This document shows positions 5,346 through 32,000 of a DNA stretch of 32,000 nt, piece after piece. The first letter of the stretch is position 1. Each line of letters opens with the position of its first letter. The stretch is taken from assembly GCF_000018305.1 (NCBI RefSeq), contig NC_009954.1, positions 540,001 through 572,000 of the forward strand, written 5' to 3'. This stretch comes from Caldivirga maquilingensis IC-167. Lineage in GTDB: Archaea; Thermoproteota; Thermoprotei; Thermoproteales; Thermocladiaceae. The position numbers and the translations under genes were made by a program. The notes beneath the pieces are model-generated. The model had not been told where the DNA came from, did no database searches, and saw only the letters and a list, made by a program, of their open reading frames with translations.

Positions 5346-5906
5346 TCATGATGCCGCCACTTTCCTCCTAAAGACAAAGCCGCAGACTGGGCACGTTATT
5401 TTACTTGATGTTGATGGTACTATCACTGCCCTGCATTGAGGACACCTAGTTTCAACAACACCGAGTAATGGGCCCCTTAGGCTTATGTGGTATGGTGGCT
5501 TACTTGATAAAACCCTCGCCTTAATTAAGTCCCCTAAACCCACCGCATCATAAATAGTGCTTAACCTCTCCTCGGAGGCATAAGTTACGTAAAGTATACC
5601 CGTCTCAGCTTGAATCCTCCTAACCCCATCCTGATGTTGAACAGCGAAGATCCTAACCATGGCGACCTTATCGTTTGGGAAGTAGTACACCTTACCGTAC
5701 ACTATTTGCCCAGGCCTAATTAGGCTTAATTTAAGTGGCTTAACGTTAACCACGTGGTTAACTCTATCCCACTCAGCAATGCCAAGAACCATTGATTTAA
5801 CGTAGCCTGAATCAACGTACGCATTATCGCCTGGAAGATACTCCTCCTCAACACCCAATTCCTCACCAGGTGTGACTAAGGCTTTACTTACTGAAGACCC
5901 CTGCAT
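5346..5906 (-). CDS. csl4: Exosome complex RNA-binding protein Csl4
   Basis: 186 aa. N-terminal domain, then an S1/OB-like core (GQIVYGKVYYFPNDKVAMVRI), then a C-terminal zinc ribbon CPQC...CPVC. This is the characteristic Csl4 three-domain order. Confidence 0.75.
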   Translation of the reverse strand: MQGSSVSKALVTPGEELGVEEEYLPGDNAYVDSGYVKSMVLGIAEWDRVNHVVNVKPLKLSLIRPGQIVYGKVYYFPNDKVAMVRIFAVQHQDGVRRIQAETGILYVTYASEERLSTIYDAVGLGDLIKARVLSSKPPYHISLRGPLLGVVETRCPQCRAVIVPSTSSKITCPVCGFVFRRKVAAS

Positions 5907-5979
5907 CGTTCTGCTAAACTAAGCACTATTAATAACACTAACCCTAATATGAATGCGCCGTGGATTAAGGATCCAGTAC

Positions 5980-6990
5980 TCATCTTCTACCTGACCTTGT
6001 AGTTATGGTTACTGCTTCATCGAACTTCCTGGCTATGTAATCCCTCTTCTCCCCCTCACTTGAGAAACTCCCCCTAACCACGTGGGCCATGTTGGCTAAA
6101 ACCTCCTTCTTAAGGTCACTTAAGGCAGGCTCCCTCCTCTCTATCCATGCCTTAGCCATGGTGTTGGCTAAGGCGTATATTGAAGCCCTTATGCTTGGTG
6201 AAACCTCAATTATCCCGTCCTGATTCATCAACGTTATGAAGTTTGTTAAAACCTCAGTCAACATGCTTGGAGTCTTAACACCAATGTGGCTTAAGGTTAA
6301 GTTAGCCTTCCACTCCAGTATTGCCTTAAGCAACTCCCTGTCAGGGTACTGAATCTCAACAACCTTCATTCTATCGGCCAAGGCTTCACTAAGCTCATAA
6401 ACACCAGAGTACTCAGCTGGGTTTGATGTTGCTATCATCAGGAAGTCACTCCTAATCCTGAAACCTCTAATGTAGACGTAGTGCTCTTGAAGAACCTGGA
6501 GTAATGATGCTTGACTATATGGGTTAAGCCTATTTATCTCATCCATTATAAGCACCTTACCATGGGAGAGAACAAGGGGACCAGGTATGTAGGCTAGGGG
6601 GTGGTCTAGGCCTGCTTGAAGAGCCACAGCTATATCAATATCCCCAGTGAGCTCGGTAGCCGTCATGTGGCTGTGGCAAGCCACCTCAATGTAAGGTGGG
6701 TTGTCTAGGGCTAGGATACTGGCTATCTCCTCAGCTAGGGTTGTCTTACCAACACCCACGGGGCCCATTATCATCACATGCCTACCCACTGATAAACCGC
6801 TTAAAACATCAAGAGTAGCCTCACCAAGACCCCTAAGGCTGGATTCAAGTGACTTAAGTATATTATTAACACCCTTCTCCCTAATCGCCTTAACCACCTT
6901 AGTCTCCATGCTTATTGGATCACGCTTAAGCAGACTGGATAATGTCGGTAATGATCCAAGTAAATCCTTGGAATTACTTTGCATCAGCAT
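5980..6990 (-). CDS. AAA+ ATPase, MoxR/AAA_5-like, orphan (no VWA partner adjacent)
   Basis: Walker A GPVGVGKTT, Walker B VLIMDEINR, sensor-1-like ATSNP, C-terminal helical lid. Confidence 0.7.
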   Translation of the reverse strand: MLMQSNSKDLLGSLPTLSSLLKRDPISMETKVVKAIREKGVNNILKSLESSLRGLGEATLDVLSGLSVGRHVMIMGPVGVGKTTLAEEIASILALDNPPYIEVACHSHMTATELTGDIDIAVALQAGLDHPLAYIPGPLVLSHGKVLIMDEINRLNPYSQASLLQVLQEHYVYIRGFRIRSDFLMIATSNPAEYSGVYELSEALADRMKVVEIQYPDRELLKAILEWKANLTLSHIGVKTPSMLTEVLTNFITLMNQDGIIEVSPSIRASIYALANTMAKAWIERREPALSDLKKEVLANMAHVVRGSFSSEGEKRDYIARKFDEAVTITTRSGRR

Positions 6991-17159: not shown

Positions 17160-17235
17160 TGGTAGCCGGGCCCGGATTCGAACCGGGGTCAGTGGGTCCA
17201 AAGCCCACCATCCTTGGCCGCTAGACGACCCGGCT
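17160..17235 (-). tRNA. tRNA-Gln (anticodon UUG), 73 nt plus genomically encoded CCA
   Basis: The minus strand folds as AGCCGGG-UC-GUCU-AGCGGCCAA-GGAU-G-GUGGG-CUUUGGA-CCCAC-UGAC-CCCGG-UUCGAAU-CCGGG-CCCGGCU-A-CCA. This is a full cloverleaf: 7-bp acceptor stem, canonical T loop, U33, and anticodon UUG. Confidence 0.93.
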
Positions 17236-25423: not shown

Positions 25424-25909
25424 TCAATGGGATGCTGACGCTAGTATTTTCTCAGCTTCCTTAATCATCTTCTCAACCTCACTCATATATACAGCTACAT
25501 CATCCACAGATAACTTAGCTTCATGAAAACCATACACATGAAGAAAATACGCACTACCCCATCCACTCAATACCCAATCGCCTAACGCCTTCAGCTTACT
25601 AACAGCGGAGCCTAATCGGTAAGTGTACCATCTACCCTCCCTCACGGCTGATTGGTGTTCAGGTAAATTATACTTCTCAGCTAATGCTTTCACAGTCTCC
25701 TCAGCAGCCTTATAGGCTTTCTCACTGGCTTGAACAGCATCACCCTTAGCTAAATACTCCCTAGCTTCACTAATGTATTTCCTAGCCAAGTCTAGTCTTA
25801 TCCTCATGCTCTCTGACGGATCACTTTTAGATATTTCACTTAGCACTAAGTCAACTATATTAATACCCTTCTCCTCAGCTATTCTTATTAACTCCTTAGG
25901 TATTTCCAC
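25424..25909 (-). CDS. PaREP1/PaREP8-family protein (archaeal all-alpha, HEPN-related family)
   Basis: 161 aa. ...ARKYISEAREYLAKGDAVQASEKAYKAAEETVKALAEKYNLPEH...WYTYRLGSAVSKL...GSAYFLHVYGFHEAKLSVDDV fits my recollection of the PaREP1 family consensus. Confidence 0.65.
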   Translation of the reverse strand: MEIPKELIRIAEEKGINIVDLVLSEISKSDPSESMRIRLDLARKYISEAREYLAKGDAVQASEKAYKAAEETVKALAEKYNLPEHQSAVREGRWYTYRLGSAVSKLKALGDWVLSGWGSAYFLHVYGFHEAKLSVDDVAVYMSEVEKMIKEAEKILASASH

Positions 25910-26575
25910 GGTTATTAAACACCTTGGGAAGTTATTAAGCTTTCAGTATTAATGTATTAATGATTATTAATTCATATCGCATGAACGCTGAAGAACTCCT
26001 AATTTTCATTTACCTTAAATGCACTATATAATGCATAAGTAGACTTTACTCTGGATTAAGGCTATTGAATATGACTTAATTGATGCTGAGATAAATGCTT
26101 AAGGCGCCGTTCTTCATTATACATGGAGAAACACCGCCTAAGAGACATAATTTTCACACCGCTAGTAAAGTACCATACTATCATGCGTTATCCCGATGTG
26201 GTAAATGGATTACTCAGCGAACCTGTTGATTAGTTTAAGACCGAGGAGTCTTAGAGTTTGGCTAAGAGAATGGTTAAGTATGAAGCAATACACCTGAGGA
26301 GGTTCTTAGAAGACATTGAGGCATTCTTGAGGGAAATTAATTAAGGAGCTGGTTAAGTATGAGCGATTTAGTATAGTTTCCAGGGATTTTGAGGTAATGA
26401 GTTTCTTGAATAGTCTTTTATGTCCCTAATAAGATTCGGTGGAATTTTGGACTTATGTATTTCATTGAGGTAATTCCATTAACGTAACTGGAATTCCTAG
26501 AGAGACTATAGGACTAGTTAGACTGAATCTATTGAAGGCTTAATTATTGATTTATGCACGGTGTTAGGTGTTCAT

Positions 26576-26950
26576 CTACTTAAGTAACTCCTCCTTAGCC
26601 CTAATGATCATTTCCTCAACATCCTTAATATACTCCTTCACTGAATTAACATCGAGTTTACCCTCATGAAAACCCCAGACGTGGAGTAGGTATGTTGAGG
26701 ACTATCCTCTCCTACTCCACTCATATTTTGAAGCAACAGAGGATAAGTGATAAATGTACCATTCACCCTCCTTCACGGCCATTTGATACTCAGGTAGGTT
26801 AAACTTCTCGGCAATAGCCTTGATAACCTCCTCAGCGGCCTTATACGCCTTCTCTGAGGCTTGAATTACGTCACCGGCATTTAACCTTTCTCTAGACTCC
26901 CTAATTGATTCCTCAGTGATACGCATTAACTCCTCTATAGGATTACTCAT
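26576..26950 (-). pseudogene. Frameshifted PaREP1-family paralog
   Basis: Track ORF 26702-26950 (…DVIQASEKAYKAAEEVIKAIAEKFNLPEYQMAVKEGEWYIYHLSSVASKYEWSRRG*) stops early. In another frame just downstream, my translation of 26576-26698 gives STYLLHVWGFHEGKLDVNSVKEYIKDVEEMIIRAKEELLK*. This aligns with the C-terminus of the intact copy (SAYFLHVYGFHEAKLSVDDVAVYMSEVEKMIKEAEKIL). Confidence 0.7.
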
Positions 26951-27029: not shown

Positions 27030-27974
27030 TCACATTCTTCTAATCATCTTAATGAGCGCCTTAACAGCCTTATTATACTCCCTGCAGTTTATTGGTTCCC
27101 CAGCATATACGTGTCTCTCGTAGGTTGAAATTACATTAAGCACCAATTCACGGTCACTGGTGTAGTAGGATATGTATTTAAGTAATTCACTTCTCGTTAA
27201 GTCAGGCTTATATATTTGAAGAAACTTGTTCAACCTATTAACCACCCTCCTCATTCCGTTAACGGCGCAGTCCTCATTAGTACTTAATTCACTAATGGTT
27301 AGGACGATTAGGATTATGGAAATTAAAGCTAAGGCAATTAATACTATTAACTCAGGTGAGGCGAATTCATTAACCACACCGCTTACCGTGGTGGTTACTG
27401 TGACTGAGGCATTAAGGTAAGGCTCACCACCATACCTATTTGCGCCAGGTGGTAGAAAGTGACCAATCATTGTTGTGTTACCGAGGTAAGGATTAATAGG
27501 ATTCAGTGGGTTAACTAACTCCTCACTGGTTTCGTTTAATGAACCTGAGGGTAAGGATTGATTAGCCTGGGGACTTGCTGGTTGCTGAGTAGGCTTGAGG
27601 GGTGAGGCTAAGCTAATGTAAACTATGAGTTTAGTTAAGTTAACAGCCTCATGCTCAACCTCTATTACACCATAGGCTAGGTACGGCTTATTATTAAGTA
27701 TCAGGAATCCACTGAATTCCACTGCCTGAGTGAAGTTAATTGTGGAGTAGGCTTGAGCCTCATTAATTAGGCTTGAGGCAGTTGGCTCAGTTAATATGAG
27801 GACCCCCATGGATCCATTATACTTAACGCTCAGGGGAATGAGCTTAATAAGGGAGTAGTTAAGGGGCGTTAACACTACACTGGTCTCATTCTGAGGCATT
27901 AGTAGTGGTGAGGAGGCTACACTGATGGCTAATACCACTGTAATAAAGTATATATAACCTTTCTTAACGTTCAC
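27030..27974 (-). CDS. Bitopic membrane protein: signal anchor, glycosylated ectodomain, TM, cytoplasmic DUF4129-like tail
   Basis: N-terminal hydrophobic YIYFITVVLAISVASSP. About 9 N-x-S/T sequons. TM helix LIVLIALALISIILIVLTI. The C-terminal LTRSELLKYISYYTSDRELVLNVISTYERHVYAGEPIN resembles the DUF4129 T.rE......l..l...YE...Y motif. GTG start, with a TATA (27997-28005) about 27 nt upstream. Confidence 0.55.
   Translation of the reverse strand: MNVKKGYIYFITVVLAISVASSPLLMPQNETSVVLTPLNYSLIKLIPLSVKYNGSMGVLILTEPTASSLINEAQAYSTINFTQAVEFSGFLILNNKPYLAYGVIEVEHEAVNLTKLIVYISLASPLKPTQQPASPQANQSLPSGSLNETSEELVNPLNPINPYLGNTTMIGHFLPPGANRYGGEPYLNASVTVTTTVSGVVNEFASPELIVLIALALISIILIVLTISELSTNEDCAVNGMRRVVNRLNKFLQIYKPDLTRSELLKYISYYTSDRELVLNVISTYERHVYAGEPINCREYNKAVKALIKMIRRM
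27949..27957 (+). promoter_or_regulatory. TATA box for the 27982 operon, embedded in the first codons of the divergent gene
   Basis: TATATATAA is centred about 29 nt upstream of GTG 27982. Confidence 0.4.
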
Positions 27975-27981
27975 ACATTAG

Positions 27982-29523
27982 GTGACTGAAGAGGTGTTAA
28001 TATTACTTTCCCTAAAGCTCATGGCTTACGCCCTATTATCCATCATGGGTAACGCCTCATGCGTAATGGTTCCCAGTATAAATAATACTGTAATTAACCT
28101 AACCCTTAACGGTACAGGCTTTGAATTAACATTAATTAAAAGTAATATTACTGTTACCGGCCTTAATTTAACTTTAAATAATTACTATAACGTATCAATA
28201 ATGGGTAAATACGCTGAGGAGTTCATGAAGCTTGGTGAAGCCTATTGTGAGGGATCCTTCGGTAAAATGTACATTATTGGTAATAATGCTTACTTTATTA
28301 ATTCAACAAGCAGTGGATTAATCGTCGGCGTCACAGGTAACTTAACCATTAATGAGGTGTCGATGACCTGCCCCATGGTACCTGCCTTGAATACTCCATA
28401 TATTAAGGTTATATATATTAATGGAACTGGGTGCCTAATTACTACTAAGTTAGGTGGAGGCGTGCACATGGCGCGTAATATGACTTCAGTTAATTTAATG
28501 CTCAATGGTTTCATGCCAATACCCTTTAAGGTCACCTTCAGTGGAATCTTCAATACATACACCTACGGGGGTGGGTTGGGGCTTGGGAACGCTTTCCCAA
28601 CAAGCGTACTACTGGTAACTAAGTCCGCTGAATTAGTGGCTAGGGTTGAGTCAAGTGCACCGTTTTACCTCAGATTCTATGTTTTCGATAATGTGACTAA
28701 AGGCTATAGCCTTAACTATACATTGAAGCCTATAGTTTCCTTCGAAACCATACCTTACACAGTGGTTATGTTCACTGGTAATGTAACAGACTGCAGGGTG
28801 TATAATGTTACCGTCTACTTAATTCACCCTGAAAACATTATACCTATACCGATACCTGTTAATGAAAATGAGTCATTTGTGGTTGCACGCTATGTTGAAA
28901 TCGAGTACACTAATCCTCCCTCCAGTCTACTTTACTTGATTGAACCCGGTAAGGTACTTATGGTAAGTAACCCAGTAAGTGAAGTAGGGTATAGTGTTGA
29001 GGCTTGTAAAGCAACTAGTGTGGAAGCTGCAGCCATTAATGACCCATATGCACTCCTATATAGGTCCACGGTTAAATTACCCGTAACCATTAACGCTACA
29101 ACACCCATGAAGGGGGCTTTAGCCATATTTAAATTATTCAATAATGATACTGTTAAGGAGTTATTAAGTAATGCCTTAAATTACCCATGGAGCCCACTGG
29201 TGGCTAGTGCCGCAGCCATGTACCTCTATAGGGCCTCAGGGTACCCGGCTAGGGTTATCCTAGGCACTATACCCGTTAAGTATGATGGGGAATACTTAGA
29301 GTACGGTTACTTGCCTTGGGTTGAATTATACTACGGTGGTTGGATTGACTTCAAACCCTACAGGGGCTTACCAGTATCACCCAATGGTGGTGGATTAGGT
29401 GCATTATTCACTAAGTATGGTATAGTTAACTACGTGGGTGTTAGCGTACTTTTAGTGCTACCGGCGTTACTAATTTATTACCTATACCTTTACTTAACAG
29501 CGAGGGGTGTTTACAGTGAGTGA
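27982..29523 (+). CDS. Glycoprotein-like ectodomain protein with catalytically inactive transglutaminase-core-like domain and C-terminal TM anchor
   Basis: 513 aa with at least 17 N-x-S/T sequons by my count. The C-terminal region NYPWSPLVASAAAMYLYRASGYPARVILG...YLPWVELYYGGWIDFKP aligns to the transglutaminase core pattern G.C..FA.....LRA.GIPAR.V.G...HAW.EVY...GW...DP. A TM helix VGVSVLLVLPALLIYYLYLYL follows. An alternative start is ATG 28021. Confidence 0.55.
   Translation: MTEEVLILLSLKLMAYALLSIMGNASCVMVPSINNTVINLTLNGTGFELTLIKSNITVTGLNLTLNNYYNVSIMGKYAEEFMKLGEAYCEGSFGKMYIIGNNAYFINSTSSGLIVGVTGNLTINEVSMTCPMVPALNTPYIKVIYINGTGCLITTKLGGGVHMARNMTSVNLMLNGFMPIPFKVTFSGIFNTYTYGGGLGLGNAFPTSVLLVTKSAELVARVESSAPFYLRFYVFDNVTKGYSLNYTLKPIVSFETIPYTVVMFTGNVTDCRVYNVTVYLIHPENIIPIPIPVNENESFVVARYVEIEYTNPPSSLLYLIEPGKVLMVSNPVSEVGYSVEACKATSVEAAAINDPYALLYRSTVKLPVTINATTPMKGALAIFKLFNNDTVKELLSNALNYPWSPLVASAAAMYLYRASGYPARVILGTIPVKYDGEYLEYGYLPWVELYYGGWIDFKPYRGLPVSPNGGGLGALFTKYGIVNYVGVSVLLVLPALLIYYLYLYLTARGVYSE
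27997..28005 (-). promoter_or_regulatory. TATA box for the 27974 gene, embedded in the first codons of the divergent gene
   Basis: TTAATATTA (palindromic core TAATATTA) is centred about 27 nt upstream of the GTG at 27974 on the minus strand. Confidence 0.4.
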
Positions 29524-30457
29524 TACTCAAGCGGTAGGTACGGTACTTAGTAGGATGTTGACTGAGTTATCTAAGGTTATTGTTGGTTATGAGGAGGAGG
29601 CCACAGTAATGTTCGCCACACTACTGGCAAGTGGCCATGTCCTACTTGAGGGTGTGCCTGGGGTTGGTAAAACAACGCTGGCTAAGGCATTCGCCAAGAC
29701 CCTTAGCCTAAGCTTCAGTAGGATTCAATTCACCCCTGACCTTCTTCCAAGTGATGTTGTTGGTACTGTGGTTTATAACCCTAAGATTAATGACTTCGAG
29801 GTTAAGCTTGGGCCAATATTCGCAAACATAGTGCTTGCCGATGAGATTAATAGGGCTCCACCTAAGACCCAGGCTGGTTTACTTGAGGCAATGCAGGAGG
29901 GGCAGGTAACCATTGGTGGGAAGTCCTTTAAGTTACCTAAACCATTCATGGTTATTGCAACCCAGGACCCAAGGGAATTAAGCGGCACTTACCCACTCCC
30001 TGAGGCTCAATTAGACAGATTCATGACTAGGATTTACTTAACTTACCCAAGCTTTGATGAGGAGGTTCAAATAAGCATAAACACTAACCTAGGTAGGGTT
30101 GAGTTAGTTAGGCAAGTTATCTCAATTGAGGAGTTAAATAAATTGATTGACCAGGTTGATGGAGTTAAGTTAACGCGCCCAGTGGCTAATTATATAGTTA
30201 ACGTGGTTAGGGCAACAAGGGAGTATAAGGGTGTTAGGCTTGGGGCCAGTACTAGGGCTATTCAAATGCTTAGTAGGTTAGCTAGGGCCTGGGCATTGAT
30301 TCATGAGAGGAATTACGTAGTCCCAGAGGATGTAATTAAAGTTGCACCATACGTGCTAGCCCACAGGATCTTCTCCTCATCAGTTGATCCGGAGAAGGTT
30401 ATTGAGGATGTTTTAAAGGGTGTTGAAACCCCTGAGGCTAGTTTAATAAGGAGGTAA
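29507..30457 (+). CDS. MoxR-family AAA+ ATPase (AAA_3 type)
   Basis: VIVGYEEEATVMFATLLASGHVLLEGVPGVGKTTLAKA (Walker A), NIVLADEINRAPPKTQAGLLEAMQE (Walker B), VIATQDP (sensor 1), LDRF, and the C-terminal lid GASTRAIQMLSRLARAWALIHERNYVVPEDV. It overlaps the upstream gene by 17 nt. GTG 29516, with the SD-like GAGGGGTG, is an alternative start. Confidence 0.88.
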   Translation: MFTVSDTQAVGTVLSRMLTELSKVIVGYEEEATVMFATLLASGHVLLEGVPGVGKTTLAKAFAKTLSLSFSRIQFTPDLLPSDVVGTVVYNPKINDFEVKLGPIFANIVLADEINRAPPKTQAGLLEAMQEGQVTIGGKSFKLPKPFMVIATQDPRELSGTYPLPEAQLDRFMTRIYLTYPSFDEEVQISINTNLGRVELVRQVISIEELNKLIDQVDGVKLTRPVANYIVNVVRATREYKGVRLGASTRAIQMLSRLARAWALIHERNYVVPEDVIKVAPYVLAHRIFSSSVDPEKVIEDVLKGVETPEASLIRR

Positions 30458-30472
30458 GGTAGGTAAGTAACC

Positions 30473-31543
30473 GTGGTAAGTGCAGCAAGTAGGGTGAAGG
30501 CAGTATTAAGGACATTAACCAGGCGACAGGTAATTGACCAGATTAGGGCTGTGGCTCAACCGCTGATAATGGTTGTTGTGTCCTACATCGGCTTCATTAA
30601 TGGTTCACCTCAATTAACCATAGTAGCCTCCCTAGCCCTACTCTTCTACACATCCTACGCGCTCTCATGGTATGTGTCGCGTACAGTGGAGTTAAGGAGC
30701 ATTAAGGTTGAGTTACCATCCCATGCAATACATAGGGGTGAGGGTATTAGGGTTAAGGCGCCTATTGGGGTTGAGGTTAAGCCTATTGTATCAAGGCACG
30801 TGGTCGTTAAGGGTGATGAATTAATCTTTAAGTGGAGTGGTGTCGCTAGGCTGCTTGGCTTCCTATTAACCGCTTACGACTCCCTAACTGGGTTAACATT
30901 ATCTAGGTTTCAGCAATTGAAATCAACAGTAATGGTTCTACCAGGGCCGTTGGAGGGGGCTGGGATTGGGGCCTCAAGGCTTCTTGAAACTGGGGCTGAG
31001 GAGTATAGGGGTCTTGTTGAGTATGATTACTCTAAGCCAGCCTCAAGGATTCACTGGCCATCCTCAGCTAAGGTTGATTCACTCATAGCTAAGGATTACA
31101 GTGAGGAGGCGGCTAGGTTAACCGTATCCATACCCGCCTTACCTGAATTATTAACTGGAGGTGATGTTAGGCCTATTGATAGGGTTCTCATGGTTCTTGA
31201 GGAATTGGCTAGGCAACATGGGTTAATTAGGGTTCTTTTAATTGGACCAGGTATATCGGAGAGTATTAACGTGAGCGTTAATGAAGTACCCATTATTGAG
31301 GGCTTACTTGTTGACGCCTACTCATGGGCTAGGGATGAGAATGAGGTTAGGCGGCTAAGTAGGTTAATTAATGCGCCAAGTGAGGAGGCTGCCTGGGTCG
31401 TGTACCCTAACCCTAAACCTAATGAGGAGGGGTGGGATTACTTCATAGTTAATGCCACAGGTCACTTAGCGATAATACCCGGTGAAGAGGCTAAATACGC
31501 TGTTCAATTAAGGAGGAGAGGTATTGAGACCCTGGTGGTTTAA
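30473..31543 (+). CDS. DUF58-family protein (VWA-like partner of MoxR) with N-terminal TM hairpin and degenerate MIDAS
   Basis: Two N-terminal TM helices. The DUF58 core is EYRGLVEYDYSKPASRIHWPSSAKVDSLIAKDYSEE (pattern R.Y..GD....I.W..sAr...l.v..y). The following strand reads ARLTVSIPALP where DUF58/VWA proteins usually have hhhhDxSxS. Confidence 0.7.
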   Translation: MVSAASRVKAVLRTLTRRQVIDQIRAVAQPLIMVVVSYIGFINGSPQLTIVASLALLFYTSYALSWYVSRTVELRSIKVELPSHAIHRGEGIRVKAPIGVEVKPIVSRHVVVKGDELIFKWSGVARLLGFLLTAYDSLTGLTLSRFQQLKSTVMVLPGPLEGAGIGASRLLETGAEEYRGLVEYDYSKPASRIHWPSSAKVDSLIAKDYSEEAARLTVSIPALPELLTGGDVRPIDRVLMVLEELARQHGLIRVLLIGPGISESINVSVNEVPIIEGLLVDAYSWARDENEVRRLSRLINAPSEEAAWVVYPNPKPNEEGWDYFIVNATGHLAIIPGEEAKYAVQLRRRGIETLVV

Positions 31544-31544
31544 C

Positions 31545-32000
31545 ATGGATTATTGTAGACTTACGTTAATTTTAATGATTATTACCGGTATGGCCTTAAT
31601 AATAACCACCGGTTACCTACCGTTAATACCATTAGCGGCATTACTACCGCTCCTACTCCTTATTAAGCCCAAGTACTGTGAATACACCACGCTTAGCCTA
31701 GCTGCATTACTACCCCTTGCCCTACTTCCCTCACAGGGCCCACTGCCCTTAAGCCTAGGCTTAATCGAGGAGTTACTCTACGCTTCACTGCTTATTACTA
31801 GGTTAACTAGGGCTGGTGAATTAACCATGATACTTAACATGGTCTTATCCATAGCCTTATTCACACTATACTACTTTACTGATGCCTGGAAACCGCTTGT
31901 GGATTACGTTGTTAGCCTAATACCCTTAACCAGTGGTCAAATTATAGGCATATCATTGCTAAACTCAATGATGTTAACCGTTGTGAGCATAATCATAATT
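31545..32000 (+). CDS. Polytopic membrane protein, N-terminal 152 aa (continues beyond window)
   Basis: Absent from the ORF track because it is open at the window end. The ATG lies 1 nt after the DUF58 stop. My translation is MDYCRLTLILMIITGMALIITTGYLPLIPLAALLPLLLLIKPKYCEYTTLSLAALLPLALLP...ILNMVLSIALFTLYYF...GISLLNSMMLTVVSIIII, with at least 5 hydrophobic helices. Confidence 0.6.
   Translation, partial: MDYCRLTLILMIITGMALIITTGYLPLIPLAALLPLLLLIKPKYCEYTTLSLAALLPLALLPSQGPLPLSLGLIEELLYASLLITRLTRAGELTMILNMVLSIALFTLYYFTDAWKPLVDYVVSLIPLTSGQIIGISLLNSMMLTVVSIIII

Follow-up and report, generated by a model that had tools for sequence, protein, structure and literature searches.

Five genes around a MoxR-type ATPase

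The window analysed is a stretch of 32,000 nucleotides from the archaeon Caldivirga maquilingensis IC-167 (contig NC_009954.1, positions 540,001 to 572,000), and its last part, from 27030 to 32000, is occupied by five open reading frames (ORFs), here named g1 to g5. They encode a MoxR-type ATPase, a partner related to DUF58 proteins, a protein with a degenerate transglutaminase core and two further membrane proteins, and together they probably represent a strongly diverged archaeal form of the membrane module that in bacteria combines MoxR, DUF58 and TgpA. All five ORFs reported in a preliminary description of this DNA were recovered in place:

g1, 27030-27974, minus strand: bitopic membrane protein of 314 amino acids (ORF list)
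g2, 27982-29523, plus strand: candidate type-I-like membrane glycoprotein of 513 amino acids (ORF list)
g3, 29507-30457, plus strand: MoxR-type AAA+ ATPase of 316 amino acids, or 313 if begun at the GTG at 29516 (ORF list and Pfam)
g4, 30473-31543, plus strand: divergent DUF58 protein of 356 amino acids (hhalign)
g5, 31545-32000, plus strand: small polytopic membrane protein, the window end removing its last 13 codons (ORF list)

Genes g2 and g3 overlap by 17 nucleotides, g3 and g4 are separated by 15 nucleotides and g4 and g5 by just 1, and the gene overlaps together with the 1-nucleotide spacing indicate an operon.

The product of g3 can be assigned as a bona fide MoxR AAA+ ATPase. It matches the Pfam families AAA_3 (E value 8.1e-63, 210.6 bits against a cut-off of 27) and AAA_lid_2 (2.9e-19, 69 bits, cut-off 22.7) and the solved MoxR protein PDB 2R44 (2.4e-74); its score against Pfam bpMoxR lies barely at the threshold (27.2 bits, threshold 27). 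The following motifs were located on the plus strand:

29651-29674: Walker A, GVPGVGKT, present
29831-29854: Walker B, VLADEINR, present
29957-29971: sensor-1, ATQDP, with Asp replacing Asn
29999-30022: PEAQLDRF, present with its arginine intact
30242-30256: GASTR, present with the sensor-2 Arg

The active site had been described as complete, and this holds for the Walker A and B motifs, the arginine of PEAQLDRF and the GASTR motif, but not for sensor-1. A scan of contigs with MoxR, dominated by the generic pattern EAQLDRFM, returned bacterial loci only, and 80 of these loci served as the reference set; of the 75 MoxRs in it for which an A[TS]QxP motif could be recognised, 71 carry the usual ATQNP. 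The aspartate of ATQDP is present in every Caldivirga-clade MoxR examined, that of the locus L094 included, and in none of the bacterial reference MoxRs. A defence function of the MoxR-vWA conflict type was considered and rejected, as PADLOC returned only short P-loop matches in g3 and nothing in the other four genes.

A transglutaminase core without its catalytic triad

Gene g2 is predicted to encode an extracellular, sequon-rich protein that ends in a transglutaminase-fold core from which the Cys, His and Asp are absent. Its features, on the plus strand, are:

amino acids 5-23: signal anchor (hydropathy), followed by an ectodomain of ~375 amino acids
amino acids 400-460, 29179-29361: degenerate transglutaminase core, with Cys replaced by Pro405, His by Leu444 and Asp by Lys458
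amino acids 484-506, 29431-29499: C-terminal transmembrane (TM) helix, the chain ending 7 residues after it

Taken singly, the Caldivirga protein matches Pfam Transglut_core (PF01841) below the curated cut-off of 23 bits (17.6 bits, E value 0.0049) and only over the C-terminal half of the core, and its counterpart in L094 is likewise below the cut-off with 18.6 bits. The Vulcanisaeta orthologues, which align with g2 across its entire C-terminal 300 residues, exceed it with 43.3 and 42.2 bits. In many of the 80 bacterial loci the MoxR and DUF58 genes are followed by a gene for a protein of 700-830 amino acids; 17 of these third genes were tested, and 14 encode Transglut_core, which amounts to at least 14 of the 80 loci, with DUF4129 present in 8 of the 14 and TgpA_N in 5. 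Alignment of g2 with the 17 proteins by hhalign gave 80%, and 93.8% with an E value of 1.7e-7 for the extended family. When the g2 family profile was compared with 177,635 PDB sequences, the single match at an E value of 1 or less was TgpA of Pseudomonas aeruginosa (6G49, E value 0.0013). The name given to g2 by NCBI is 'transglutaminase domain-containing'.

The position of the nucleophilic cysteine is held by proline in the Caldivirga-type proteins, including that of L094, and by tyrosine or phenylalanine in Vulcanisaeta, and the histidine and aspartate are replaced by leucine and lysine (valine and glutamate in Vulcanisaeta). The loss of the triad is real, old and distinctive, because it extends to all nine archaeal g2 sequences in the core alignment, whereas each of the 14 bacterial MoxR-linked Transglut_core partners keeps the Cys and the His together with an Asp or Glu. 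The transglutaminase-like end with an erased triad that had been proposed from the C. maquilingensis sequence was therefore borne out by the profile searches, by the Vulcanisaeta orthologues and by the sole PDB match to TgpA.

The preliminary count of at least 17 N-x-S/T sequons in the g2 ectodomain, with one TM anchor at its end, also proved correct. There are 18 sequons, compared with a mean of 5.3 +/- 2.1 in shuffled sequences, and none of 2000 shuffles reached this number. The g1 ectodomain contains nine, between amino acids 29 and 188 (shuffle mean 3.7, P = 0.005), and in both proteins every sequon falls between the first and the last hydrophobic helix; the two ectodomains are probably N-glycosylated. 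They are not paralogues of one another by hhalign (1.5%).

A diverged DUF58 protein downstream of MoxR

In g4 the following features were identified on the plus strand:

amino acids 26-68, 30548-30676: N-terminal TM hairpin, followed by a beta-rich middle domain
amino acids 177-212, 31001-31108: DUF58 hallmark motif EYRGLVEYDYSKPASRIHWPSSAK... (sequence and profile alignment)
31118-31144: first VWA-like strand, LTVSIPALP, without the conserved Asp

No match to DUF58 or to any other Pfam or NCBIfam family was obtained for g4 at an E value of 1 or less, nor for its homologues from L094 and Vulcanisaeta with Pfam DUF58 (PF01882) at the same limit. The relationship emerges in a comparison of profiles, for which a reference alignment was built from 24 proteins encoded right after bacterial MoxR genes, 23 of them recognised by Pfam as DUF58. 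Against this alignment hhalign gave 96.5% with the Caldivirga sequences only, and 98.2%, with an E value of 6.3e-14 over 197 columns, once the homologues from L094 and Vulcanisaeta were included. The match extends from the TM hairpin through the beta-rich domain to the hallmark ...Y....RIHW..SA[RK], to which g4 contributes EYDYSKPASRIHWPSSAK, in agreement with the DUF58 pattern R-x-Y...R-I-H-W-x-x-S-A-[RK]. The gene also lies directly downstream of that for MoxR, the position that it has in the bacterial loci, and is named 'DUF58 domain-containing' by NCBI. Since the profile match of 98.2% takes in hairpin, beta domain and hallmark motif, g4 is best described as a highly diverged, membrane-anchored DUF58 protein, the partner beside MoxR that had been expected. 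From the positive-inside rule its N-terminus and its bulk would be cytoplasmic.

It had further been argued that LTVSIPALP takes the place of the DxSxS strand normal for a metal ion-dependent adhesion site (MIDAS). The string is indeed there, but DxSxS is not the norm among DUF58 proteins, and the argument from an erased MIDAS is weak because the motif occurs in only 2 of the 24 reference sequences. What is conserved is the first Asp of the strand (Asp in 21 of the 24, Asn in the other 3), and at this position g4 has Ala222, the L094 protein Ile and the Vulcanisaeta protein Tyr.

The two remaining membrane proteins

The divergent gene g1 has the architecture that had been foreseen for it, a signal anchor, a sequon-rich ectodomain, a TM helix and a cytoplasmic tail, the following being on the minus strand:

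amino acids 6-25, 27900-27959: N-terminal signal anchor (hydropathy)
amino acids 208-227, 27294-27353: TM helix (hydropathy)
amino acids 233-314, 27033-27278: cytoplasmic helical tail of 82 amino acids, tentatively DUF4129-like

In the AlphaFold2 model (overall predicted local distance difference test score, pLDDT, of 58) a small alpha/beta ectodomain is joined by a disordered linker rich in P, N, S and T to the TM helix and to a tail of three or four helices, for which the pLDDT is 60-86. An exhaustive hidden Markov model (HMM) search of 1.84 billion representative sequences yielded only seven relatives of g1, the most distant being from Vulcanisaeta; the L094 protein is 31% identical.

The assignment of the tail is less secure than the architecture. 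Caldivirga g1 itself does not match Pfam DUF4129 (PF13559) at an E value of 1 or less, but three divergent members of the family do so at the same tail position (P0025, E value 0.0034; L104, 0.04; P0024, 0.24), the best score being 17.9 bits against a cut-off of 24.8. Comparison of g1 with the C-terminus of TgpA by hhalign gave 52% with five Caldivirga sequences, 21% with the ten-sequence family and 8% with the tail alone; the tail was matched to the DUF4129 part of TgpA-like proteins and shows the T..E...YE..Y pattern expected there. The tail may accordingly be regarded as DUF4129-like on a tentative basis. A Pfam scan found no stand-alone DUF4129 proteins upstream of the bacterial MoxR genes; genes for FHA-domain, FtsW and penicillin-binding proteins were found there instead. 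In several reference loci, including L005, L039 and L059, genes for FHA-domain, FtsW/RodA and penicillin-binding proteins lie ~1-4 kb upstream of MoxR, a neighbourhood that hints at a context of cell-envelope growth.

Gene g5 encodes, at full length, a protein of 165 amino acids with four to five hydrophobic helices, for which no family was found in Pfam, NCBIfam or PADLOC. The preliminary description had distributed the parts of TgpA over three genes, and for this g5 would have to correspond to the N-terminal region of TgpA (TgpA_N, DUF3488). That identity was rejected, hhalign giving 1.4% and 0.1%, so the distribution over three genes is not supported: the core in g2 is supported and the tail of g1 is tentative. 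The gene is nevertheless always found after g4, in Vulcanisaeta as well, and it belongs to the module by this constant position.

Conservation of the block

The positions of the five gene families in all archaeal loci that had been fetched were determined with HMMs. Seven distinct Caldivirga-like loci, and L094 as well, show the full order g1 (divergent), g2, MoxR, g4, g5, from which no partial contig departs; in Caldivirga and L094 MoxR overlaps g2 by 8-17 nucleotides. The insert between the chorismate synthase gene and g1 is variable, holding PaREP1 genes or a HEPN/nucleotidyltransferase pair; the five-gene block is constant. Two separate loci of the Vulcanisaeta type (L092/L093 and L104/L105) have g1 standing divergently beside g2, g4 and g5, for instance at 6900-10831 in L092 and 4715-8638 in L104, between flanks that carry aIF5B and L24e instead of the chorismate synthase, PEBP and radical SAM genes. 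No MoxR gene is found in these loci, either between g2 and g4, where there is a spacer of ~85 bp, or within 7-10 kb. The linkage of the four genes in Vulcanisaeta provides the strongest evidence that the membrane genes belong together, and it also means that they do not require a MoxR gene in the same locus. The expectation that the flanking genes would be kept as neighbours of the MoxR-DUF58 pair was thus confirmed in the Caldivirga-like loci, and in Vulcanisaeta for the four-gene core.

All five genes are under purifying selection. The ratio of non-synonymous to synonymous substitution rates (dN/dS) is lowest for g3 (0.06-0.07), which is the best conserved of the five, and lies between 0.14 and 0.21 for the others at dS values of 0.4-1.7 (g1, ~0.2; g2, 0.16-0.18; g4, 0.17-0.19; g5, 0.14-0.19), the accessory genes evolving about three times faster than MoxR. 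Because dN/dS is 0.06-0.21 throughout, all five can be taken as functional genes. In some metagenome contigs of 454/Joint Genome Institute (JGI) origin g4 or MoxR is divided into two or three ORFs (L090/L102, 4262-5333; L103, 799-1867; L099, 1501-2450). These are probably sequencing frameshifts and not pseudogenes, as intact versions occur in other contigs from the same populations.

Control region and neighbouring genes

If the longest ORFs are taken, g1 and g2 start only 7 bp apart, or 19 bp if g2 begins at the conserved GTG at 27994, which its homologues indicate as an alternative start. The sequence between and around them contains:

27940-28010, no strand assigned: divergent control region (sequence and alignment of seven loci)
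27949-27957, upstream of g2: A/T-rich, TATA-like TATATATAA, ~26-29 nucleotides before the g2 start
27997-28004, opposite strand, upstream of g1: A/T-rich, TATA-like TTAATATT, ~26 nucleotides before the g1 start

Given the spacing between TATA box and transcription start in archaea, this arrangement suggests back-to-back promoters and leaderless or near-leaderless transcripts for both genes. Each box falls among the opening codons of the gene on the other side, and in the alignment of seven loci the conservation of the boxes is inseparable from coding constraint.

Beyond the end of the window, as the longer locus copy L001 shows, g5 (5827-6324) has next to it a PEBP gene in convergent orientation and a gene for a radical-SAM protein. 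On the other side, between the chorismate synthase gene and g1, the window holds two genes of the PaREP1 family, at 25424-25909 and 26585-26950. The second has an ORF of only 82 amino acids, with similarity to a PaREP1 protein of 158 amino acids spanning ~129 residues, and is probably truncated; the insert is missing from L084, L085 and L094. Between the two, at 26098-26508, there is fragmentary similarity in several frames (45-67% identity) to a HEPN and minimal-nucleotidyltransferase pair that is intact at the corresponding position of a Caldivirga relative (L091, 6009-6720), and in C. maquilingensis this segment looks like a decayed toxin-antitoxin pair. A tRNA-Gln gene (TTG; 17160-17235, minus strand) was the sole RNA gene in tRNA and Rfam scans of the whole window and is unrelated to the module.

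Interpretation of the locus

The best account of these observations is that the widespread MoxR-DUF58-TgpA-like membrane module is present here in a lineage-specific, strongly diverged form; this reading, with the complex proposed here, is given a probability of roughly 0.7. Within the archaeal loci fetched, this form was found only in Caldivirga-like archaea and Vulcanisaeta. In the mechanism envisaged, g1, g2, g4 and g5 would form a membrane complex, and the outward-facing, glycosylated ectodomains of g1 and g2 would bind a component of the envelope without catalysis, the pseudo-transglutaminase of g2 serving an envelope protein as scaffold or receptor. On the inner side of the membrane the bulk of the DUF58 protein and the helical tail of g1 could provide a docking surface for the MoxR hexamer, which would spend ATP on assembling or remodelling either the complex or its client. 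This mechanism is modelled on the precedents offered by the MoxR-VWA paradigm and by the inactive transglutaminase folds of band 4.2 and Rad4. Since the Vulcanisaeta loci hold the four membrane genes but no MoxR, the conserved core would be the membrane complex, with MoxR as an accessory or trans-encoded chaperone.

Relative to the preliminary description, some two-thirds of the parts list is retained: MoxR, DUF58 and the transglutaminase core are supported, g5 as the N-terminal part of TgpA is not, and DUF4129 stays tentative. The ATP-driven remodelling of the envelope proposed there is plausible, but MoxR as its obligatory core motor is not supported, given that it is missing near the Vulcanisaeta genes.

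A number of points weigh against the interpretation as a diverged MoxR-DUF58-TgpA-like module. The absence of MoxR from the Vulcanisaeta loci weakens its ATP-driven part, and the change from Asn to Asp in sensor-1 of g3 may alter hydrolysis. Gene g5 is without a link to any part of TgpA, and the similarity of the g1 tail to DUF4129 lies under every curated threshold and becomes weaker as the alignment is broadened. With an overall pLDDT of 58 the model of g1 is mediocre, and Foldseek returned no significant fold match for it in the PDB; the AlphaFold2 model of g2, built from six sequences, was unusable (pLDDT 33). For the glycosylation of the two ectodomains the sequons are the sole basis.

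The Vulcanisaeta data also raise a serious alternative, in which a complex of g1, g2, g4 and g5 that is independent of MoxR would be the functional unit and MoxR, either inserted in Caldivirga or lost from the Vulcanisaeta locus, a dispensable regulator or assembly helper. Both Vulcanisaeta-type loci, with g4 following g2 after ~85 bp and no MoxR within 7-10 kb, speak for it, as does the finding that in P. aeruginosa the MoxR gene PA2875 is non-essential and tgpA is essential (PMC3507681). On the other hand, DUF58 genes lie directly downstream of MoxR in the bacterial reference loci, which makes a trans-encoded MoxR likely in Vulcanisaeta, and in Caldivirga and L094 MoxR overlaps g2 and is the best conserved gene of the block. 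Independence from MoxR is possible but rather unlikely. It would seem improbable, in turn, that g1, g2 and g5, as ordinary glycoproteins of the envelope or as membrane proteins, just happen to lie beside a MoxR-DUF58 pair with other clients, their likeness to TgpA being a coincidence. Pfam matches are indeed missing for g1, g4 and g5, the DUF4129 signal is sub-threshold and synteny alone within one genus is weak evidence, but the four genes are still adjacent in Vulcanisaeta where both flanks differ, g2 shares homology with the transglutaminase core and has TgpA for its sole PDB match, and the overlaps and 1-nucleotide spacing point to an operon.

Two further explanations concern the loss of the catalytic residues. 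That g2 is still an enzyme, whether transglutaminase, protease or amidase, working through non-canonical residues is quite improbable. Several cysteines, C271 and C342 among them, are invariant in the g2 family, Vulcanisaeta included, and conservation along the protein is highest in the core segment, but in all nine sequences the nucleophile has become Pro, Tyr or Phe and the His has become Leu or Val, and the invariant cysteines lie 60-130 residues upstream of the core, where they would more simply be disulfide partners in the extracellular protein of a thermophile. Least probable, and disfavoured, is that the accessory genes are functionless, decaying relics of an operon of MoxR, DUF58 and TgpA that was once active. 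This would fit the lost catalytic and metal-site residues, the fast evolution and the restriction of homologues to two or three genera, but not the dN/dS values of 0.14-0.21 for g1, g2, g4 and g5, the long invariant stretches or the intact frames of the complete, well-assembled loci, the three 454/JGI contigs with a split g3 or g4 excepted.

If the locus is a diverged MoxR-DUF58-TgpA-like module, it might tentatively be viewed as a natural separation-of-function version, with the transglutaminase chemistry gone, the ATPase gene out of the Vulcanisaeta locus and the four membrane proteins still linked and under selection. This is a rather doubtful extension; were it true, the conserved role of the module would be structural or signalling, that of a trans-membrane scaffold binding an envelope component through a pseudo-enzyme, and protein cross-linking would be a bacterial add-on. 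A core that is dead yet conserved argues that catalysis is not the sole selected function of the common bacterial cluster. With the parts on separate polypeptides, studies of interaction and structure gain smaller proteins that can be taken apart from one another, and the locus adds a candidate envelope-associated complex in the Thermoproteales to archaeal biology. A narrow taxonomic range and the lack of genetics for Caldivirga restrict the practical impact.

Comparison with known systems

The pairs RavA-ViaA, CbbQ-CbbO and NorQ-NorD each consist of a MoxR hexamer and a VWA-type adaptor encoded next door; these adaptors are soluble and have a functional MIDAS and defined clients. Like g3 and g4 the pairs combine an ATPase with an adaptor from the neighbouring gene, and they offer a mechanistic template for a DUF58 protein that would dock MoxR onto its client, whereas g4 is membrane-anchored and is without even the first Asp of the MIDAS. 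Erythrocyte band 4.2 and Rad4/XPC retain a transglutaminase or papain-like fold without the Cys-His-Asp triad and use it for binding or scaffolding. These proteins are eukaryotic, soluble or peripheral and come from an unrelated context; they are an analogy for a selected, dead core in g2 and not homologues at the level of the system.

Of the characterised operons, PA2875-PA2874-tgpA of P. aeruginosa, encoding MoxR, DUF58 and TgpA, is co-transcribed, and TgpA pairs six TM helices with a periplasmic domain active as a transglutaminase (PMC3507681). The Caldivirga locus has in common with it MoxR followed by DUF58 and, in the same unit, a membrane protein with an extracytoplasmic domain of transglutaminase fold. 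TgpA is, however, one chain of 668 amino acids with six TM helices, a Cys-His-Asp core active in vitro and a C-terminal region, whereas in Caldivirga the dead core is on the single-pass g2, encoded upstream of MoxR, and the putative DUF4129 tail belongs to the separate, divergent g1 and not to the chain that bears the core. An equivalent of TgpA_N was not detectable, g2 having a single N-terminal anchor.

Related clusters were sampled from Chloroflexota, Bacillota and Actinomycetota. The PFNA cluster of Bifidobacterium (pkb2-fn3-aaa-atp-duf58-tgm) and the mycobacterial moxR operons are further contexts, and the role of DUF58 is stated there to be unknown (PMC12067865). As in Caldivirga, the bacterial clusters, PFNA included, bring MoxR, DUF58 and transglutaminase families together in one operon-like block. 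They differ in the order of the genes (MoxR, DUF58, transglutaminase rather than transglutaminase, MoxR, DUF58), in the Cys and His kept in 14 of 14 partners and the DUF58 recognised by Pfam in 23 of 24, neither of which applies to Caldivirga, and in being without separate genes resembling g1 or g5. A search of the literature found no paper on an archaeal version of the MoxR-DUF58-transglutaminase module; an apparent DUF58 match in a 2026 preprint was to DUF5819 and is irrelevant. As the NCBI names of g2 and g4 show, the module has already been recognised in part. The Caldivirga locus is therefore a variant of a known, uncharacterised module and not a categorically new system, set apart by its gene order, the placing of its parts on separate genes, the loss of the triad, the divergence of its DUF58 protein and the additional genes g1 and g5.

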